Origin: Catajapyx aquilonaris
Lineage: Eukaryota
Length of the DNA: 64,000 nt
Direction: 5' to 3'
Assembly: GCA_000934665.2 (NCBI GenBank)
Contig: JYFJ02001310.1
Location: forward strand, 1 to 64,000
The notes beneath the pieces are model-generated. The model did no database searches. It was given only the letters and a program-made list of their open reading frames with translations, and was not told where the DNA came from. Position 1 is the first letter of the stretch. Each line of letters begins with the position of its first letter. Positions 25,301-36,500 of the stretch are shown here, in pieces. A program made the translations under genes and the position numbers.

Positions 25301-27681
25301 CAAAGCAACGCGGTTTTTGTTCGTGTTTGACAATGCAAGGCATGAAAAACCGCGAGTCCCTGTGAGAGTGCCCAGCATCAAAACCGCCACCATTTTCATC
25401 CTTCAATTTGCACGTCCCTCTGCGGGTAGAGAAGTCACGACCATGAAAGGTCATATCGGGCCAAAAAAAACCATTCATCACCAAACTTGAGGTCGCGGAA
25501 ACTTGGCCCAGTGTCACGTCCGCCACTAATGATACGCCCGCCTAATTAAACTAATGTTGACGGAAAAGACACGGCCATCAGGAGCATCGCTCGTGGTCGC
25601 CAAAATTTAACGAGTGAGCAGGCCTTTTTTTGCACGTTTGGCTCGAAAGGTGTTGGCCCCCAAAAAATCCTGATCCATATGTTCAAGTCGTGTTCCACAC
25701 CCAGCCGTAAACACACGTAGACGCCTTTTTTTTGTAACTATAGAGGATTATCCGCCCTTGTGTTCTCAGCATCTGCTGCACAAATATTTGCGAAATGAAA
25801 AGTTAGCAAAAAAAGCACTTTTATGCAACGAGAGCGGCTTAATTACTAACTTGCAAATTCTCCCAAGTAATTAATGTGCCCTTATTGCCAAAAGTGCAAA
25901 AAAATGCGAAAAGGAAGCTTGATTATTATTTCGCAACTTTCAGCAATTTCCGGGATTTTTGATGCCACACTATGCATAATTATTATAGGCAATAATATTA
26001 TATGGCTATAGAAGTGCTGATTTTCCTACTATTAGGTATAGGCTAAAATCAATTTAATACAAATTTCAGGCACATTTTTTTCAACTCCACCGAAGGAGAT
26101 GGCAAATATAATTAATTGATTGGCACAAAATGGGTAAAAATTAAACTACTTAATTATTCAAAAGCATAGGTTTCAGAATAATTCGCGTTGAAAAATATAT
26201 TCAGCATATTTCATATTTCATGCCAATTCCATCTTGCGGGAAGCTCTAATAAATTCTTATCACTTCGCGAACACGTTTTACCCCCCCCCCCCCAAATGAG
26301 TATCTGTTTATTAACCGGCTCAATTGAAACACTCGCGATTTTGCCAATAAATTTTCGCACTATCGGCAGTCCAGATCGCGCGCCAGGAACAAAGCTGCGA
26401 TCGTCGGTCTGCAACCGAATAACAAATGGGCATCTGCAACAATGCCCGTCGCACTTGACCTCACCCCCAAATTACCGCCCCAGGTACAATTAATAGATAT
26501 CTCTAACACTACTGGGGAAGCATAAATATTCGCATACGTGTGCTCTGGATGGAAAGCCAACTCGACCAAGGTAGGTCGAAGAACCGGACCAGAAGTAGGC
26601 CTATGAAAATTTCCCCCCAAGCATATAATATAACCCGTAATTAATTACAGCAGATTGTGTAATTCATACAACGCCCACCTGTGATTATCCTCCGTCAGTC
26701 ATATCCATTTAAAAAGTGTACAAGTGGTGTGATAATTAATATAACCGACAAAACGCTTCACAGGCACCTATGAATATGTAACGTCGCAATTATTAGCGTC
26801 AACGGGTGCGCATTAAAGTGACGTTGTTGTTTGCTTATGTTAATTGAACCGCACTGTATTTCAAGCACGGCTCTATTTGGATAAATGGACATTATGTTAG
26901 TCCGGATGGGATCAACTAAATAAATATTAGGGGTAGATGGACATTCAAAATATGTCAGGTCCATATGACGTCCGCATTGTCATTTGAATTTTTTCGTACA
27001 TTTTTTAACATCCTACCAATTTATATACCACCTTAAGGAAAAAAAATTGCTGTTTGTTACAACATACTTACGCTCGGATGTAACCTGATGTCACTCATGG
27101 ATCACTCGCACTACACTTTATAAATCGCACTTAACACGTGGATCCGAACACACAAAACCAACACAAGTCAACACATATTCACATGATGCTTGTTGAATAA
27201 GAATCCTCGCACTTTTATTCCGATTTCTTAAGGAAAAGAAGCGGCCAAACGAGCAGGTGCAGTTGGCTGCTACTACTACATGGAATCTGAGGTAGGGAAA
27301 ATGTAGAGAGTTGTTCAGGTAGGTTTTTTTTAAAAGGGTCTCGAGCACTTCCACGTCATAACCAATCATGCGCTTCAGCTCACCTGGCCACTAGAGGGAC
27401 CTGCTTGTTTTTCTTCTTCTTCTTTTTGTACCAACTGAGGACTTCTTGGTAGTCACAAAAAAACACACACACACAACAACACAAACGTGGTCCATTCATC
27501 TCGATGGCACGAGTCGCTGCGTTTCACTGCGCTTGCGTCAAGATTTGGATTCTTCTGGCCTCGAAAATTAATTTTTCGAAATTTAAGCTGTGTATGCTGC
27601 AATAATTGGACAAGATGATATATTACTGCAGGTTTTAATTTGTCTATAAAATATTGTGGGTACCTTAAAATGTCTCAATTT

Positions 27682-27709
27682 GGGGGGGGGGGGGGGGNGG
27701 GGGGGGGGG
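27682..27709. repeat. poly-G run containing an N
   Basis: Read directly; likely a low-quality assembly point. Confidence 0.9.
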
Positions 27710-28843
27710 AGAGAAATTACACTGTAACTTGAAGCCAGCCGCAATAGTTCATTTCAATTAAGGTTCAGCTCTAGGCTACTTGGCTACCATGTAATTCAAG
27801 TGCTAACGAGGATTACTTGTCCAAGTTCTGATTGTACTTGTACATCCGTAATGCCCATTTGATTCAACACGACGAATCCTGTACCTGAACAAGGTAAGCG
27901 CATTTCGGGCAATTGGTGTCTACTTACGAGCGGAACTAAAACCCAAGCGAGAAACAATGCTGCTGCTGCTCCCGGAAACCTTTGTAGTGCAATAATCTGG
28001 GCTTAAGTCTTGGGGAAACATGGAGCGCCTGGGTTTCCTCGGAAAGTTCACTTGTTACGGCCCCCCTTGTCTCCTGCCAATGTGTCTTAGCTGCTTAGAA
28101 GCAATTCCCTAACCTCAAACCCCGGACGGTGCACAACAATTCCGTTGGCTTTAAAGGATGATCGGGATATATGAGCGAAGCTTCTAAACACAAGTATACA
28201 CCTTATTGCATCGTTCAGTGACACCCCCAGCTAGTTAATGAGTATTAAACGCCACTAGTCAACTTCGGCCTTTCAATAATTGCATTGTTATACGCTACAA
28301 ACAAAGATTCGGCAGCGGTATCAATACTCAGCTAAACCATTATGTTTTCCTTCATGAAACTACATGTAGGCCAACAGTACATGACTTCATGCAAAAATAA
28401 ATTGATATCCGGATGTACTGTCCAGTGGAGCGTATGCAGCTAACTGCACAGCTGATTCCTCAACAGGTGGTTACCGATAGAGGTTGCAAAGCTTTGGGCA
28501 TAACATAACGGTATTCGTACGCATTATTATTAGGCTATTCTCTCCCTGATGTAAGTTTTTCGTAACCAAGTACGTAACACAGATTTTTGGTGTGGGCGTT
28601 GGTTATTGCGCCATTATTACCAGATGTTTCTGTCAAAGTGAAAGATCGAAATAATTGCAACTCTATAATAGTTAATAGCTCAATGAAAAGCACAAAATAA
28701 TGTCTCTGTATGATACATTTCATTGACCCATCCGCCTCGAGCAGCTAAATTATGTGCCTTCTTGAAAAGCAATACATGGACACTCAATAATTGCCATAAT
28801 AAGACACAATATAGTAAGAAACCAAGCATTAGCACTGAATGCA

Positions 28844-28932
28844 ATTATTATTATTTATTTTTATTATTATTATTATTATTATTATTTATTTATTATTATT
28901 ATTATTATTTATTATTATTTTATTTATTATTT
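28844..28932. repeat. Imperfect (TTA)n microsatellite
   Basis: Read directly. Confidence 0.95.
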
Positions 28933-29206
28933 AGGTCTTTATGGTGATAATATATTTTTGTTCAGTGCAAGTAGCCTAATAAGTGACAAAATTTAGTAGC
29001 ACATTTTTTTTTTCTTCGTTCATCCTTTAAAGGCGTCTGTATAAACCACCAGTGCGAGATAATCGAATTAAAGGCACGTGCGATGGTACTACAGTAATAA
29101 ATGGAATTATTCATCTTCGAGGAGCGACACGTATTAATCCTCAAAAAAATTAATAACCTGAGAACATGTTTCTGCCTGACGCAAGGGGTTATTTATAACG
29201 ACAACA

Positions 29207-29207
<1 letters not shown>

Positions 29208-29290
<83 letters not shown>
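29208..29290. repeat. Perfect (AAT)n microsatellite
   Basis: Read directly. Confidence 0.97.
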
Positions 29291-29293
<3 letters not shown>

Positions 29294-29607
29294 TCCCGCC
29301 GAATTTCGTGTTAAGTTCCATCACTTTCCACCAGAGTCCGCTACCGGATCGCAAATGTGACCCTGCCATCTGTCGACAACATGTTCAACTTCTACATCCA
29401 TTGTTTTCGTTTATGACGTCACTTTTTATTTTTATTTTTTATTTTTTATTTTTATTCCGGTCGGATGAGCTGAGGTCTTTCCAAATTCTTCCAACGTCAT
29501 TCTCCCCCGGCCATTTTTTTTCCCCCTGCAAGCCTTTGGAATGGTGCAGCTGAAGGAGCCAACAACTACAGCCTAAGAACACCCTTCGTGTGATGTGAGC
29601 CCCTGTG

Positions 29608-29728
29608 ATGAACAACCTCACCCAGGTGGTGGTGCCCTGGCCCTTCCCAACGCAGACCACCTTCGCCTGGAGGGTCACCAGCACCATCACCGTCGGATTC
29701 GTAGGAATACTAGGAACCATCGCAATCG
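29608..29728 (+). CDS. TAFAZZIN: Tafazzin alternative first coding exon 1A
   Basis: ATG 29608 gives MNNLTQVVVPWPFPTQTTFAWRVTSTITVGFVGILGTIAI, then G|GTAAGA. The phase-1 donor fits exon 2 at 31755. WPFP...W..S...G.VG matches the tafazzin N-terminus. Not in the ORF track. Confidence 0.85.
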
Positions 29729-30335
29729 GTAAGAGAGAGAGACACATTCGCAAAGGATGCCAAGCATAATGGAGAAAGAAACAATCAAATCATTTTTGGA
29801 ACGATTAGGGGAGCAAAGGTCACGTGACCAATTATGCGGGATTTTCGAATTTAAAAAAAATACATTACATGTAGGGCTTGCTGTTACACGTATCCAATTT
29901 CTGCAGTAATTGGCCCTATTGTTACAAATAACAACTTCCTGAACGATAGCGCAATTTTTTTAACTGCCGCAATAAAAATTCGTTGTGCTAATTATGTAAG
30001 CAGGATTGCATTTATTATTTACCATGCCGTTCAGTAGGTTAAAGTATTGGCGACAAGGGTGAGTGAAAATTTTGCCATCTCGCAATAGACGAAAATCCGG
30101 TGTTGCTTCTCATAAGGAGTCGCCATAACAATGACAAAGGTCCGCACATAAAGCCACGTTTACATGTGCGCGATTTGATGTCATCATCGAGCGAAAATAA
30201 CAATCATGGTAACTATATACTTGAGTGTAATTATCGCATGGGAGAAAATCAGGTGTCGCTTTTTACATAACCTGAATAAGCAAGTCACCATAAGGATGAC
30301 AACAAATATTAATTTGTACACTTAAAGATAATTAA

Positions 30336-30619
30336 GGTGCGTTTACATGTTAGTGATTTGACGAGCGAAATCTTCACCTAGGCTGAGTAACCCAAGTAAC
30401 CAATATTGTTTGAGGCGAAAATCTATTGTTAATTTCAGCCTCGGCGAAGATTTCGCTCCTCTTCGCTCGTGAAATCGCTCACATGTGTTAAGCCGCATTT
30501 ACGTATGGGCACAATGAACCCGATTGTTTGGGGGCAAATGTAACAATATATTTTCGACCCCCAAGCAATTGCTCAGCGATTCTCAGCAATGAGCGAATCG
30601 CTCGTATGTAAATGCGGCC
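30336..30619. mobile_element. Two adjacent PIF/Harbinger-type MITEs
   Basis: 30491-30619: TTA|AGCCGCATTTACGTATGGGC ... GCTCGTATGTAAATGCGGCC|TAA. 30336-30486: GTGCGTTTACATGT..GATTTGACGAGCGAA ... TTCGCTCGTGAAATCGCTCACATGT. A related end lies at ~30152. Confidence 0.65.
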
Positions 30620-31172
30620 TAATTGTCAAATGAGTGGGCATCACTACAGTTTACGTGCACCCAACAATGAATTTAAAAAATCAGTAGCGAAATTAGTAGT
30701 TGCAGGCGTGGCTTTCGTATCCTTTTGCAGAAATGGGATGGGCAAAGTCTGGCAGTGCGTGCGCAACAATAACCGTTTGATATGCGAGGGAGGATGCATG
30801 TTTTGACATTTTAATGGCAGAACAGATGGAGCGTGTGGTGCAGACGTAAGGGGTTCAAGGGAACTTGCTGCGGACAGCTGTGGGGAGAGATAAGGGAATG
30901 AGTTACATGGGTTGTTTGGTCCATCAGGAGATGACATAACCAAATCATATGAAGATAAGTAGTTATTATCAGGGTGGACCTTTGGGATGTGCAAACTCAT
31001 CACCTGATGGTTCTCAAAGCTTCCAAACAAAGGCAACAACCCCCTTGTAAATAGTATCCTAGCAATGCCAATATTGTACCTAGTGCAAGAGAGTTCAAGT
31101 GTCCTTATAGTGTACTTGTGATAAAGAGTTAAAGGAGTTGTTGGGGGCTTTTCCATTCAAAAGTGCCTAGTG

Positions 31173-32584
31173 ATGTCAAGTAGCGTGGTGCCTGTTAGCA
31201 AATCTCCTGCCCCTGACACCACCGAGTGCGAGTCGGCAGTGTTGGAATGGCCCCTGCCGACGCAACAGACCTTCCTTTGGCGGGTGGCGAGCATAGGAGC
31301 TGTTCTGTTCTCCGCTGCCATCGTCAAGCCTATCATGGGTAACATGCAAATTTGGCGGTGGGATCACATCTGGACTTGCTTTTTCTTTCTGGCGCAACTC
31401 TTCTGACTAACCGACTCGCAATGCGGCGGTATTGCTTTCTAGTCTTCTGCTCAGTGACGCTTTGCTTGTTACTTTCAGGGACGTAACTTTAGCTGTAAGC
31501 TCTGACTAACACAAAAATCACATGTTTCCATCCATATGGCCACTTTACAAGAAAAGCTGCATGTCGTAACTTGTAGATTGCAAAAAACATTTGTAATGGG
31601 GATTGGCAAAGTACCAGGTTGAAATAATTTCAAGGCTTTGTTACGTACTCTTTTCTGCTAAAAGTGATTGCCTATGTTATACATTTTGTTACGTAGCCGA
31701 CCACGGGAGCTGAGTGCTTTCCAAGTGTGTACTGATGTGTGTTAATTACCTCAGGATGGATGAACACAGTGCGTGTGTACAACAAAAACATCCTGGTAGA
31801 TGCCTTGGAGAACCGCCCTGTACACATACCGCTAATCACCGTTTCCAACCACCAGTCATGCCTGGATGACCCTGGACTTTGGGGTACGTATACGGTTTAT
31901 TCAAATTCCAGCAGATCAATTAGCATCGAGTTTATTGCAGGCATCCTCAAGCTGAAGCACATCTTCAACCAGAGGATGATGCGGTGGTCCCTGGCTGCTC
32001 ATGACATCTGCTTCACCAATCCAGTCCACTCGCAGTTCTTCGCTTTCGGCAAATGCGTCCCAATCGTGAGGGGGATGGGCGTCTACCAGGTTGGAATTGG
32101 GTTGCGTGGCGTTCACTTAATATGAATGTTGTTTGCATGTTAGTTCATAATCGCATCGTCACATGTTCTCACTTGTGCACTCTGCCCTTTCCAGCGAGCA
32201 ATGGACTTCTGCATCGAGGAGCTGAACAAAGGACGGTGGGTCCACATATTCCCAGAGGGTCGCGTGAATGTCCACCATGAGTTCATCCGCCTCAAGTGGG
32301 GAGTCGGTCGGCTCATAGCGGAGTGCACCCAAGTGCCCATAGTCATCCCGATGTGGCATGTGGGGATGGACGAGATTCTGCCGAACATCCCACCGTACTT
32401 CCCTCGGGTTGGGAAGACAGTGACCCTGAAGGTCGGAGAGCCCATTGACTTTACGGAGACCCTGGCAAGACTTAAGGCGAAGAAAGCAGGCGAGGAAGAA
32501 ACCAGGAAAGTTATAACTGACCGGATACAGGAAGCGTTCGGGGAGCTCAAGGTGGAGGCGGAACGGCTGCACTACGGGAGGTGA
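31173..32584 (+). CDS. TAFAZZIN: Tafazzin (cardiolipin transacylase), isoform using exon 1B
   Basis: Exons 31173-31338, 31755-31883, 31941-32089, 32195-32584 give 834 nt (277 aa). Motifs: [14 protein letters not shown] (HxxxxD), [49 protein letters not shown]. Confidence 0.95.
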
Positions 32585-33599
32585 TGCATGAAAAAATTTG
32601 AAATGAAACACTGGAAAAAAAAAGGCGGCGGCATAGTTTTTTAAAACATGGAAAAGTTTTTTAGTGGGAAAAGGCAACACTTGATGAGGTGCAAAGAAAG
32701 GACTAGTTTTATAATCAGCTGAGTTACGTCTTTTGTTTTATTGTTGTGCGAGTTCTACCAGCCTCGGCACAAATAAATGGTCTTTAGGAACGCAATATTT
32801 TTGCCATGATCAGCAATTAAAACTCTGGATTTCTCTCTGGATAACATGCGCGTAAATAAGGTCGGAGTTGCAGTGATGAGGAAAGGTGCAACATGCAAAT
32901 TAAAATGGAAACGTTGGCACCAAAATGACTTGTAACTGATTTATAGCCACGTTTCAATTGGATATGGAGGCATTTTAGACATTCAATTTCAGTGTAATAT
33001 TGCACAATGAATCGGCACCAGAGTAATATTTAATAAAATTATAATTTATGTACACTTGTGTGAAAGGACTGGACCAGCACGTTTCATTTGTATTACATTT
33101 ACAAAAGTCTTTGGCAGTTGCACCCTTCTCCACCACGTATCTCTTTAATAACTTCTTTTTAGGATAAAATCTGCAGCAATAAAGTTCATAAACAAACTAA
33201 CAAAAATGTCAAATGTTACACTGATTTTTTTGGCACAATTTATGTGTAAATGGACAGTGCATGTGACATCCTTTTTTTTTTTTTTGGAATGATGCATTAC
33301 CGCATAACAAAAAAAAAAGTAAGGAAAATGTACATCATATACAATACATGTTGCATGCGATTAATAAACTCTTTCATGTGTTCTTTCCCATTCCCAGTCC
33401 CCCTTACCTGATATCACAATCGTTTGCTATCTGCCAAACATGGAAATGTCATAATACAGGACCAATCTTTGAAAAGAATTTCATATTTAAAAAAAAAGGG
33501 AGGCATGGGGCCTGCCAAGATGTCAATTATCACAATGAAGTGCAGCCCCGGTTCAAAGAGGGCTGGGTTTTGAGAGAGTAGGATTGTGTTGCGTCAAGA

Positions 33600-36500
33600 T
33601 CATAGCTTCGGTTCACTCTTATCTACAGTGCTTGCCTTCTTCAGTTCAGTCTTCCTGTAACTGCGGATTGCGTTCAGGAGGTTGGACCTATCCAAGGCTG
33701 GTGGCATTTCAGGAGGAGCAGCTGGCAGTGGGGGTGGCAGGGGCTGGGTAGGGACAGGGGGAGGTGGAGGAGGCGGCGGCGGCGGCGGCACATGGCCTCC
33801 GTTGCTGCTCAAATGTCCGTGTGTTCCTGTAAAGAAGTTGCCATTAGTTTAAAATGTTCTAGAACGTCGAATAGGCCAGAAACAAAATGCATGCAGGCTA
33901 ATTTAAAAAGTAGTGATTAGCGAATAACAAAATTAAATATTGGGTTGTCCAAATGACTAATCACAAATATTACTTCACTGCGCCCTGTTACAGTAATAAA
34001 TTAATGAATAATATTACAAAATAATTCAAGCTGTCAGTGCAAGCCCATTAATTACGGACAATCCATATAGTACGTCGTATTGTGGTGTTTCACAGTGATT
34101 CAAAATTCTAGGATTAATTATTGGGTATTTGAGGATTACTATGTAGTTTCAGTTTTCAAATGTGTTGCCACAGGTGGTTGAATATCCTCAACTACTTGTT
34201 CGGTGTTTACCACTGTTTATGCAACCCACCAGCATGACTATACTTCACGGGCGACCTTGCAGCAAAAGTTTCATGCTACTCCTCCGTATGGCTTGAATCC
34301 ATTGCACCTGTTCATGTTTATGATTACAAGCTTTCATGTGCACAACCCATCTCATGTAATTAAAAGAGATAAGTACACTATCCCACTGAGGATCTAAGCA
34401 GGCATAATGATGTTACGAATACTTCCAAACCATGCAATACGATTACTGCAAACAAATTCCCAAAGTAGCCATAAGCGCAAACCATTTCATTTTTTTCCCA
34501 TACTTAAATGCATGTCACTAAAACTACGCAAACTGAACGTGCAGTACTACAAAAAATGAGTACACATGCAATTAAATGTAGAGTACAAGACACATACAGC
34601 ATTTCTGTTTAGAGGGCAAGCTGGGACTGGTCCCCCACATTTTTCTGATATATATATATATATATATTTTTTGGCTTATTTTTTTTTGTTGTATTGTGGG
34701 GGTGGTGGGTGGGTAATGCATATGGGGGAGGGAGCCTTCATCTCTTGGTCCCTGGAGAAACAGGGTGGAGTTAAGTCACAGCCACAATGCAAAATATTTT
34801 ATTCACACATTTCCTCTTCGCATTACAAACTCACCGGGTGGGGGAGAGGACGAGTTGGCAGTGCTGACGCTATTCGGACTATCAGATCGGTCGGATGTGC
34901 GGTCACTTGGGTTCACCTGCAGCGTCTCCTTCTGCTTGCTCTTCTTCCGCTTCTCAGTGTTGTTGTTCGAGGCTTTCTCTTGCGCCTTGGCCATACGCTT
35001 CTGTTTCGTGATGGCCCGCTGCTCGTCTCTTAGCCTGTCCTCCAGTTTCTCAGTTGCCTCCCTGAGAGCTTGCCTAGTATGGGATGGCAGCTTAAGGGCA
35101 GGTCGTTCCAGTGGACAAGTGCCGTTCACGTCAAAAAATGGGTCGGATAGTAGAGCTGAGATTGTTGGAAGGCCATTTTTCAGGGCAGCTTGACTCAGAA
35201 TCGACTCCAGAACAGATCCTGCAATGAAGTGTAACGTCTTGTGTGAAATATCCTTACCAGCGGGCATTGCACTGCTGCAGCAATGTGCAATAACCACACC
35301 TTAGCATTCATGTCATGCGATGAGATGAGTAACACTCAACTTGATCGCACAATGCGCTTATTGTTTTAGTGCAGCTGTGTTTTGCTGCAGAATTGTTGTG
35401 AATACTCACGTATCATGGGTGAACAGTTGGATGGGTAATCGTCGCAGTATGTTGTTGTAAGCGAGTATCCAAATGTCATCTCATACAGCAGGTGGCCAAA
35501 GCAATAAACGTCAACTGCCCTAACCCCTCCGACCTTCCGATGCTGTAGGAACTTGGGTCTGTAGTACGAAGGAAGTCCCAACACACCACCTTCCACGTCC
35601 ATGAGCCTCGCCTGGCCTCCTTCCACACACACATTCCGCAAGTGCAAGTTTCCATATGGAATTCCCTTCTCTTCCAGGAAAGCAAGTCCCTCCAGTATGT
35701 GCCTTCCGTACACTCTCACTTCACCGATTGATAGCCCATGGACTTCCTTTGCATTACACTTCTTGAGGAACGGAGCTTTAGGATCACTGCCTGACAGGGT
35801 GTCCCATAACGAACCTGACGGTAGGAAAGGACGGACAGTCATGGCACCCGAATCGGTCAGAGCCACATGCTCTGGTGGGATTATGTGCAGGTGATGAGTG
35901 GAGGACAATGCGCGTAAACAGTTGTGCAAATCTCGCTCCTCCAAATGCTTGTCGGGGCCGTAGTCTGCCCAAGACAGGAGCTTTTCCTGAGTGGGGTCGT
36001 GGCGGGATCGGACCAGGAAGTAGTGCTTGCGAATCCGCCAGCCCATATCCGGGAGGCGGCGAACCAGCTCATAGCGATCCTCGCTGCGGAGAAGCATCGA
36101 CACATGCTGGAGAACCGGCTCTGCAGGAGAAAAGCAACGTTAAAACGATGCGCCACACACAAGCTGCTCACACTTACCATGAAGTGTCTGCGAGTAGTCG
36201 TCAGGGTTGAGAAACCTCCTAACTGGAAGTGACATGGCGAGGCATGGGCGGGCCAGAACAGCGTCAATGAAGAGCTGCAGTGCATCCATCCTCTCGGACA
36301 CAAATGCCCTGTCCATGTTGCCAATGAGTTTCTTCGGAGGAAGGGGCAAGTTGGTCACGCCACACGACTCGAAAGATGTATTCAGCTTGGAAAAGTCACT
36401 GTACCTGAAAGAATAATGTCAGTGCAATAACTCATTCATTGCAAGTATGTGACACACATGCACATACAAGTGTCAGTCATGATGATCCGAAGTATCCGCC

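Follow-up and report, generated by a model that had tools for sequence, protein, structure and literature searches.

Two homologous first coding exons, each spliced to the same second exon, in a putative tafazzin gene of Catajapyx aquilonaris

A compact gene with five coding exons lies on the forward strand of contig JYFJ02001310.1 of the Catajapyx aquilonaris assembly (GCA_000934665.2), within the 64,000 nucleotides (nt; positions 1 to 64,000) that were analysed and that we call the window. We identify it as the gene for tafazzin, the cardiolipin transacylase with the LPLAT/AGPAT fold. Two of the five exons, here named 1A and 1B, appear to be homologous first coding exons, and RNA-derived contigs show each of them joined to the same exon 2. 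A search with the exon-4 peptide recovered 167 proteins at E <= 1e-3 among 578 candidates (best E 3.5e-44); PF01553 was found in all of the 120 matches listed out of these 167, and those that carry a name are tafazzins. The catalytic H-X4-D motif is present as HQSCLD in exon 2. Among the matches listed the best identity to exon 4 was 63%, and the best full-length identity was 58%, to an ant tafazzin. Since these top identities reach only 58-63%, the gene's own product and its close relatives are absent from the protein library. In a FastTree phylogeny (40 rows, without support values, midpoint rooted) the protein adjoins the transcript-derived P0088 and is placed outside the insects, a position too weakly based to assign it to a clade. 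Transacylase activity on cardiolipin and monolysocardiolipin, together with a mitochondrial location, is predicted from membership of the tafazzin family.

Exon 1A (29608-29728; coding part 121 nt) consists of 40 codons beginning with ATG, plus a final G, and exon 1B (31173-31338; coding part 166 nt) is built in the same way from an ATG-initiated run of 55 codons plus G. The interval between them (29729-31172; G+C fraction, GC, 0.41) is intronic for 1A transcripts, while the intron between 1B and exon 2 (31339-31754; GC 0.42) also serves as the 3' end of the longer intron, of 2026 nt, that 1A transcripts have. The donor sequences are TCG/GTAAGA for 1A (GT at 29729) and TGG/GTAACA for 1B (GT at 31339); the acceptor CTCAG/G at 31755 suits both, and the split codon encodes Gly either way. 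Three common exons follow, namely exon 2 (31755-31883), where helix 2 comes to its end (W-M-N) and the catalytic motif is encoded, exon 3 (31941-32089) and exon 4 (32195-33076), the last being coding to a TGA at 32582-32584 and continuing as 3' untranslated region (UTR) as far as the RNA-derived contig reaches. Splicing these exons computationally gives open frames of 262 amino acids with 1A and 277 amino acids with 1B, each with one terminal stop. The 1A peptide has the canonical tafazzin N-terminus, with W-P-F-P followed by W-R-V..S...V-G. The 1B peptide has W-P-L-P and W-R-V..S, with Ser-Ala replacing Val-Gly and a Lys-Pro in the helix, and its N-terminal tail is 15 residues longer than that of 1A, acidic and rich in Ser and Pro. 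The exon coordinates, the peptides, the separate start codons and the phase-1 GT donors fitting exon 2 at 31755 are all as given in an earlier note on this DNA.

The transcript evidence comes from the contigs of one public run, whose type is unrecorded (85,611 records; 31.8 million letters, or 31.8 megabases, Mb) and in which 60% of the sampled words were present. Such contigs give no starts, strands or levels and drop rare forms, and their depth is a poor measure of abundance; cover is lacking at 29000-29422 and 29846-30127, where they are uninformative. The contigs behave like complementary DNA. One of them, of 1161 nt, runs from exon 2 through exon 3 into exon 4 with both short introns spliced out (31883>31941 and 32089>32195; GT..AG, depth 64.5) and extends through the 3' UTR to 33076. 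A second contig, covering 29532-29727, carries the joint 29728>31755 (depth 30.6), and a third, covering 30827-31337, carries the joint 31338>31755 (depth 6.91), both of them GT..AG with 0 mismatches. Splicing to exon 2 occurs from either donor, and the two junctions that the earlier note had singled out to be looked for are thus present in this one run. A further contig (31447-31783, depth 4.8) represents the unspliced boundary between the intron and exon 2. A processed DNA copy is an unlikely source of the joints, as two 5' forms, an unspliced form and the UTR-bearing spliced contig of 1161 nt coexist in the 31.8-Mb set.

The 1A contig, which has 0 differences from the window, also delimits the 5' UTR of the exon-1A transcript to 29532-29607 as far as the contig reaches. 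This stretch holds two upstream ATGs (uATGs), one at 29541 that opens an upstream open reading frame (uORF) of 11 codons and one at 29593, where ATG is followed by TGA in frame. Further upstream, about 190 nt before the 1A ATG and just before a TTTTTA-type repeat (29423-29456), lies the perfect palindrome TGACGTCA (29414-29421). This palindrome, which from its consensus we take to resemble a cAMP response element (CRE/ATF-like), is a candidate promoter element of the 1A transcript.

The earlier note also held that joining both first exons would break the reading frame. This is so for the 166 nt as delimited, but four hypothetical AG acceptors, with exon starts at 31129, 31135, 31138 and 31171, would keep the frame and allow 1A and 1B to be included together without a stop. 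Exon 1B might in that case serve additionally as an internal cassette after 1A, giving a protein with two tandem copies of helix 2, and a tract of 65% pyrimidine before 31171 would suit such use. The pyrimidine tracts of the other three acceptors, however, are poor (0.3-0.4), no joint using any of the four was seen in the RNA-derived contigs of this one run, and a 1A>1B joint is missing among the five joints found in them, an absence that is weak evidence, as contigs drop rare forms. We regard cassette use as highly improbable.

The homology of the two exons is evident from their peptides, which align without gaps at 14 identical residues of 29 (BLASTP, E 1e-8). In tblastn searches against the whole window the other copy was in each case the sole match below E 0.2 (4e-6 and 2e-6, the next matches lying at 0.43 and 0.23), and no second copy of exons 2-4 was found within the 64-kb window. 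From the conserved Trp to the exon end there are exactly 30 residues in 1A as well as in 1B, and both exons end in phase 1. They form the only such pair in the window. The proposal that 1A and 1B are homologous first coding exons holds, and we take the first coding exon of this gene to have been tandemly duplicated. The DNA similarity of the two copies does not reach into the flanking introns beyond GGTAA and their synonymous sites are saturated, which together indicate that the duplication is old. The loop motif P-T-Q-x-T-F is common to 1A and 1B and was not seen in the homologue sequences inspected; its confinement to the two copies among these sequences points to a duplication within this lineage.

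An alignment of the DNA around the two start codons (29590-29610 with 31170-31215) pairs the GTGATGT upstream of 1A with the start-codon region of 1B, followed by a 30-nt gap and then by a GCCCCTG match. The start codon of 1A may have moved downstream, with the one-codon uORF at 29593 (ATG-TGA) being a relic of the ancestral start.

The two copies do not fit the tafazzin family equally well. They were compared by aligning the two isoforms with homologues, of which 96 among the 120 listed were used; the 24 left out, which have truncated or alternative N-termini, were those with a length outside 240-330 amino acids or without W-x-[FIVL]-[PFY] in the first 75 residues. Exon 1A keeps the Val-Gly pair (residues 32-33) at a position where V occurs in 95/96 and G in 96/96 homologues. 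Against an N-terminus profile made from the 96 homologues, 1A scores 38.1 bits and 1B 18.0, while the homologues themselves score 37.9-78.7 and the maxima of 500 shuffles each of 1A and 1B are 8.1 and 9.5 bits. The features of a canonical tafazzin N-terminus are all found in 1A and partly in 1B, which has the W-P-L-P, the Trp and the Ser but not the Val-Gly. Some family-consensus residues are lost in 1A but kept in 1B, for instance the Lys at the position of 1A residue 37 (K in 60/96 homologues, Thr in 1A), and the majority residues Ala24 and Leu20 are likewise kept in 1B. In overall character the two versions of the helix are close to each other (Kyte-Doolittle 1.64 and 1.65; hydrophobic moment 0.239 and 0.224) and fall within the range of the 91 homologues whose 24-residue helix segment is ungapped. 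Judged from these comparisons, exon 1A is the canonical copy and exon 1B a diverged one, each keeping some ancestral residues that the other has lost. The duplicated anchor of the earlier note stands as two related copies, but the copies are unequal, 1B being without the family-invariant Val-Gly.

Several properties of exon 1B favour, though not decisively, its long-term retention as coding sequence. Over 33 aligned codons, 1A and 1B agree at 18/33 of the first, 20/33 of the second and 11/33 of the third codon positions (Fisher's test of positions 1 and 2 versus 3, p = 0.033). The proportion of nonsynonymous differences (pN) is 0.41 overall versus a saturated 0.79 for synonymous differences (pS), and the motif half has pN 0.25 versus pS 0.60. 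The GC of 1B is 0.58 and its GC at third codon positions (GC3) is 0.67, to be compared with a GC3 of 0.64-0.84 in exons 2-4 and a GC of 0.41-0.42 in the introns, and 0 of 1695 intronic windows of 165 nt reached the GC of 1B. Between the donor and the nearest stop upstream of it, the frame of 1B is open for 71 codons, and windows of 55 open codons made up 217 of the 3976 taken from flanking non-coding DNA. We consider it probable that 1A and 1B are genuine alternatives as first exons, both of them coding for protein, and that 1A gives the main form. That 1B also has a promoter of its own, is translated and is under selection, and that the isoforms differ in function, is what we infer beyond the observed joints. 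The promoter-selected switch put forward in the earlier note is accordingly supported as regards the duplication and the use of both donors, while choice of promoter and a change of tissue or organelle targeting would be hypothetical parts of it.

A number of observations weigh against this reading, and one group of them concerns the quality of 1B itself. It has Ser-Ala at the Val-Gly columns, a Pro at a column where 96/96 homologues have I, L, F or V, a profile score less than half that of 1A, and a donor (GTAACA) weaker than that of 1A (GTAAGA); a Pro in the second half of the helix was found in 0/91 homologues. The contrast between codon positions is weak, resting on 33 codons, and a rough calculation indicates that constraint on 1A only could yield the same. 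No relative close enough for a conservation test was found, the best full-length identity being 58%, and when the two peptides were used to search the protein library for longer proteins, 1B yielded 27 candidates and 1A 10, none at E <= 10. A phmmer search of 1B against 1.84 billion representatives gave three matches at E 6-8e-4, in the Pfam families SPO24, Por_Secre_tail and Beta_helix; these are not tafazzins and we attribute them to chance.

Such a copy might also be a leftover of the duplication, appearing in RNA as low-level splicing or transcription noise, or as an unproductive, uORF-laden transcript that lowers tafazzin output. The lost Val-Gly (95/96 and 96/96), the helix Pro gained, the score of 18.0 versus 38.1 bits and the weaker donor would all be expected of a decaying exon, as would the lower depth of the 1B contig, the seven uATGs that its transcript would carry if the 5' UTR extends to 30827, and the failure to find a 1B-like protein in two protein libraries. 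However, a leftover should not look as 1B does in other respects. Its synonymous sites are saturated (11/33 at position 3), yet the ATG, the 55-codon frame, the phase of the donor and the motifs W-P-x-P and W-R-V-x-S survive; its GC of 0.58 and GC3 of 0.67 have not drifted down to the 0.41-0.42 of the introns, a level from which none of the 1695 windows rises to that of 1B; and it keeps ancestral residues that are gone from 1A. We thus see a leftover as unlikely, although it deserves to be taken seriously.

The other group of adverse points concerns the transcripts. All of them come from a single run of unrecorded type, and the contig with the 1B joint is shallower than that with the 1A joint (6.91 versus 30.6, on a measure that reflects abundance poorly). 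The 1B contig moreover reaches upstream to 30827, so that it precedes the 1B ATG by 346 nt or more and takes in 7 uATGs; either the 5' UTR of 1B is long and uORF-laden or reads of precursor messenger RNA (pre-mRNA) became part of the contig. Cover of the introns has a depth of 3-5, and the run must therefore include some DNA, or RNA that had not been spliced. On the exon-2 side, both alternative joints extend over 30 letters, the number that a k=31 graph leaves at a three-way branch but one fewer than the 31 of the bridging rule.

Some of these features could be accounted for by a sole promoter upstream of 1A, with the 1A donor skipped and the 1B donor used, in which case 1B would not be a first exon; the messenger RNA would retain 29729-31172, translation would stop soon after 1A and the message would be degraded. 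That the 1B-joint contig continues upstream past the 1B ATG, by 346 nt or more, would be in agreement with this, and so would the low-depth contigs that cover most of 30128-31337 as well as 29705-29845 just past 1A. The same depth of 3-5 is seen, however, in the intron between 1B and exon 2, which fits a background of pre-mRNA or DNA merged by the de Bruijn assembler, and no contig links 1A to the 1B region. A sole promoter would also leave the ATG-initiated open frame of 1B, its coding-like composition and its family residues unexplained. We find this explanation distinctly improbable and continue with 1A and 1B as two coding first exons.

What the exchange of these exons would change in the protein can be judged from structural models. 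An AlphaFold2 model of the closest named homologue, built from a 40-sequence alignment (mean predicted local distance difference test score, pLDDT, 89.3), shows a short helix (residues 8-13) followed by a long one (17-40), the latter crossing the exon 1/2 boundary. The model matches tafazzin 7zkq chain T with Z 23.2 (root mean square deviation, rmsd, 3.2; 237 residues aligned; model 6-259) and PlsC 5kym chain A with Z 17.8 (rmsd 3.5; 206 aligned; model 15-259). In both cases the aligned ranges include the long helix encoded by exon 1, so that this segment is comparable to helix 2 of 7zkq chain T and to the N-terminal surface helices of PlsC. These proteins differ from the gene described here in having a single version of the helix, and the parts of the sources available to us make no mention of a natural pair of isoforms in which it is exchanged. 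According to the accessible parts of the cryo-electron microscopy papers, helix 2 of tafazzin is a long, amphipathic helix resting on the surface of the membrane and orienting the active site (PMC9668296; bioRxiv 10.64898/2026.02.05.703992), whereas an older model, as given in the available part of its source, made it a transmembrane helix (PMC4412953). The idea that the exon-1 segment is a transmembrane anchor is not borne out by the surface position that the cryo-electron microscopy papers assign to helix 2.

As a mechanism, we propose that either 1A or 1B, never both, would be spliced to the common exon 2, yielding an isoform of 262 or of 277 amino acids. Each exon would bring its own start codon, followed by an N-terminal tail, by helix 1 (the short one with W-P-x-P) and by roughly 22 residues of helix 2, and the catalytic body would be identical in the two isoforms. 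The 1A isoform is apparently the more abundant and 1B probably a minor, diverged form. If it is made, the 1B isoform would possess an equally hydrophobic surface helix, kinked or differently packed, along with the longer acidic tail; the altered helix would probably be seated differently in or on the bilayer and would shift the preference for membrane, substrate or partner, and not the catalysis. A stronger form of this proposal makes 1B a selected and regulated switch, whose Pro-kinked helix without Val-Gly, combined with the acidic tail, changes the membrane, curvature or partner that is engaged. This stronger form is doubtful on present evidence.

Tandemly duplicated exons that are used mutually exclusively are a well-known design, and so are arrays of variable first exons such as those of UGT1A and the clustered protocadherins, in which the variable exons each come with a promoter of their own and with a donor site alone. 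The tafazzin exons resemble these arrays in being homologous neighbours of the same phase that are used singly with common downstream exons. They differ in that there are two copies only and that these encode the membrane-surface helix of an enzyme, not a ligand- or substrate-binding domain.

Alternative N-termini are also found in other tafazzin genes. The available parts of PMC6855050 and PMC7344621 describe two alternative initiation sites in human TAZ, with a hydrophobic N-terminal "anchor" and short forms without the hydrophobic region, as well as a Drosophila tafazzin-A that is mitochondrial and a tafazzin-B found in mitochondria, endoplasmic reticulum and Golgi. The background that the earlier note gave on the hydrophobic N-terminus and on differently localising Drosophila isoforms is indeed stated in PMC6855050. 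The human and Drosophila isoforms are similar to those proposed here, as one tafazzin gene gives rise to proteins that differ at the N-terminal region of the hydrophobic helix. They differ in that N-terminal sequence is added or removed, and in the parts of the sources available it is not described as homologous, interchangeable copies of an exon. Moreover, several predicted isoforms have another N-terminus attached at the same junction (…W/Y-L/M-N…), namely P0009 of an ant (X1), P0115 of a butterfly (X4) and P0016, P0043 and P0051 of fishes. These N-termini lack the W-P-x-P … V-G pattern and hence are non-homologous to it, and the proteins are automatic gene predictions. Alternative first coding exons at this boundary thus seem to be recurrent in animal tafazzin genes. 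A report of two homologous tafazzin first exons was not found in the full-text literature searched, outside which most subscription journals lie. N-terminal isoforms of tafazzin are already known, and the homologous pair of first exons is what differs here.

The sequence around the gene contains a variety of other features. Inverted repeats in the interval between 1A and 1B have arms at 30345-30386 with 30435-30486 and at 30488-30510 with 30600-30622; they are nested or adjacent and resemble miniature inverted-repeat transposable elements. Contig depth of up to 187 and many loose ends at 30345-30622 indicate that this is a multicopy repeat transcribed elsewhere. In the same interval, an antisense stop-to-stop frame of 170 codons on the minus strand (30644-31156) has no Pfam match and is probably due to chance. 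Upstream of the gene there are two microsatellites, an imperfect (ATT)28 at 28844-28931 and a perfect (TAA)28 at 29208-29291, and a poly-G run with an N at 27675-27710 marks an uncertainty of the assembly. A convergent neighbour on the minus strand (33600-36200) gives weak protein-kinase matches (PF07714, E 8.8e-7; PF00069 below the cut-off). Its C-terminal exon is rich in Gly and Pro, and only some 0.5 kb separates its 3' end from the point where the tafazzin 3' UTR ends (33076). Neighbouring open reading frames match kinase, C2H2 zinc-finger, DCAF15, PX/Vps5 and Ulp1-protease families.

Tafazzin is defective in Barth syndrome, and how the enzyme attaches to the membrane and chooses its substrates is still debated. 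Structural work points to helix 2 as an anchor at the membrane surface by which the active site is positioned. If exon 1B is untranslated noise the finding is an ordinary one, and its interest rises if 1B turns out to be conserved and regulated among tissues. The locus is also a neat example, on a small scale, of a first coding exon that was duplicated in tandem long ago. If 1B were a regulated switch, certain tissues or stages would have another lipid pool remodelled by an unchanged catalytic core, an example of a possible partner being the complex I assembly intermediate seen in 7zkq. If 1A and 1B are both coding first exons, the isoform pair would be a natural experiment on the role of helix 2 and of the Val-Gly that is invariant in 96 homologues.

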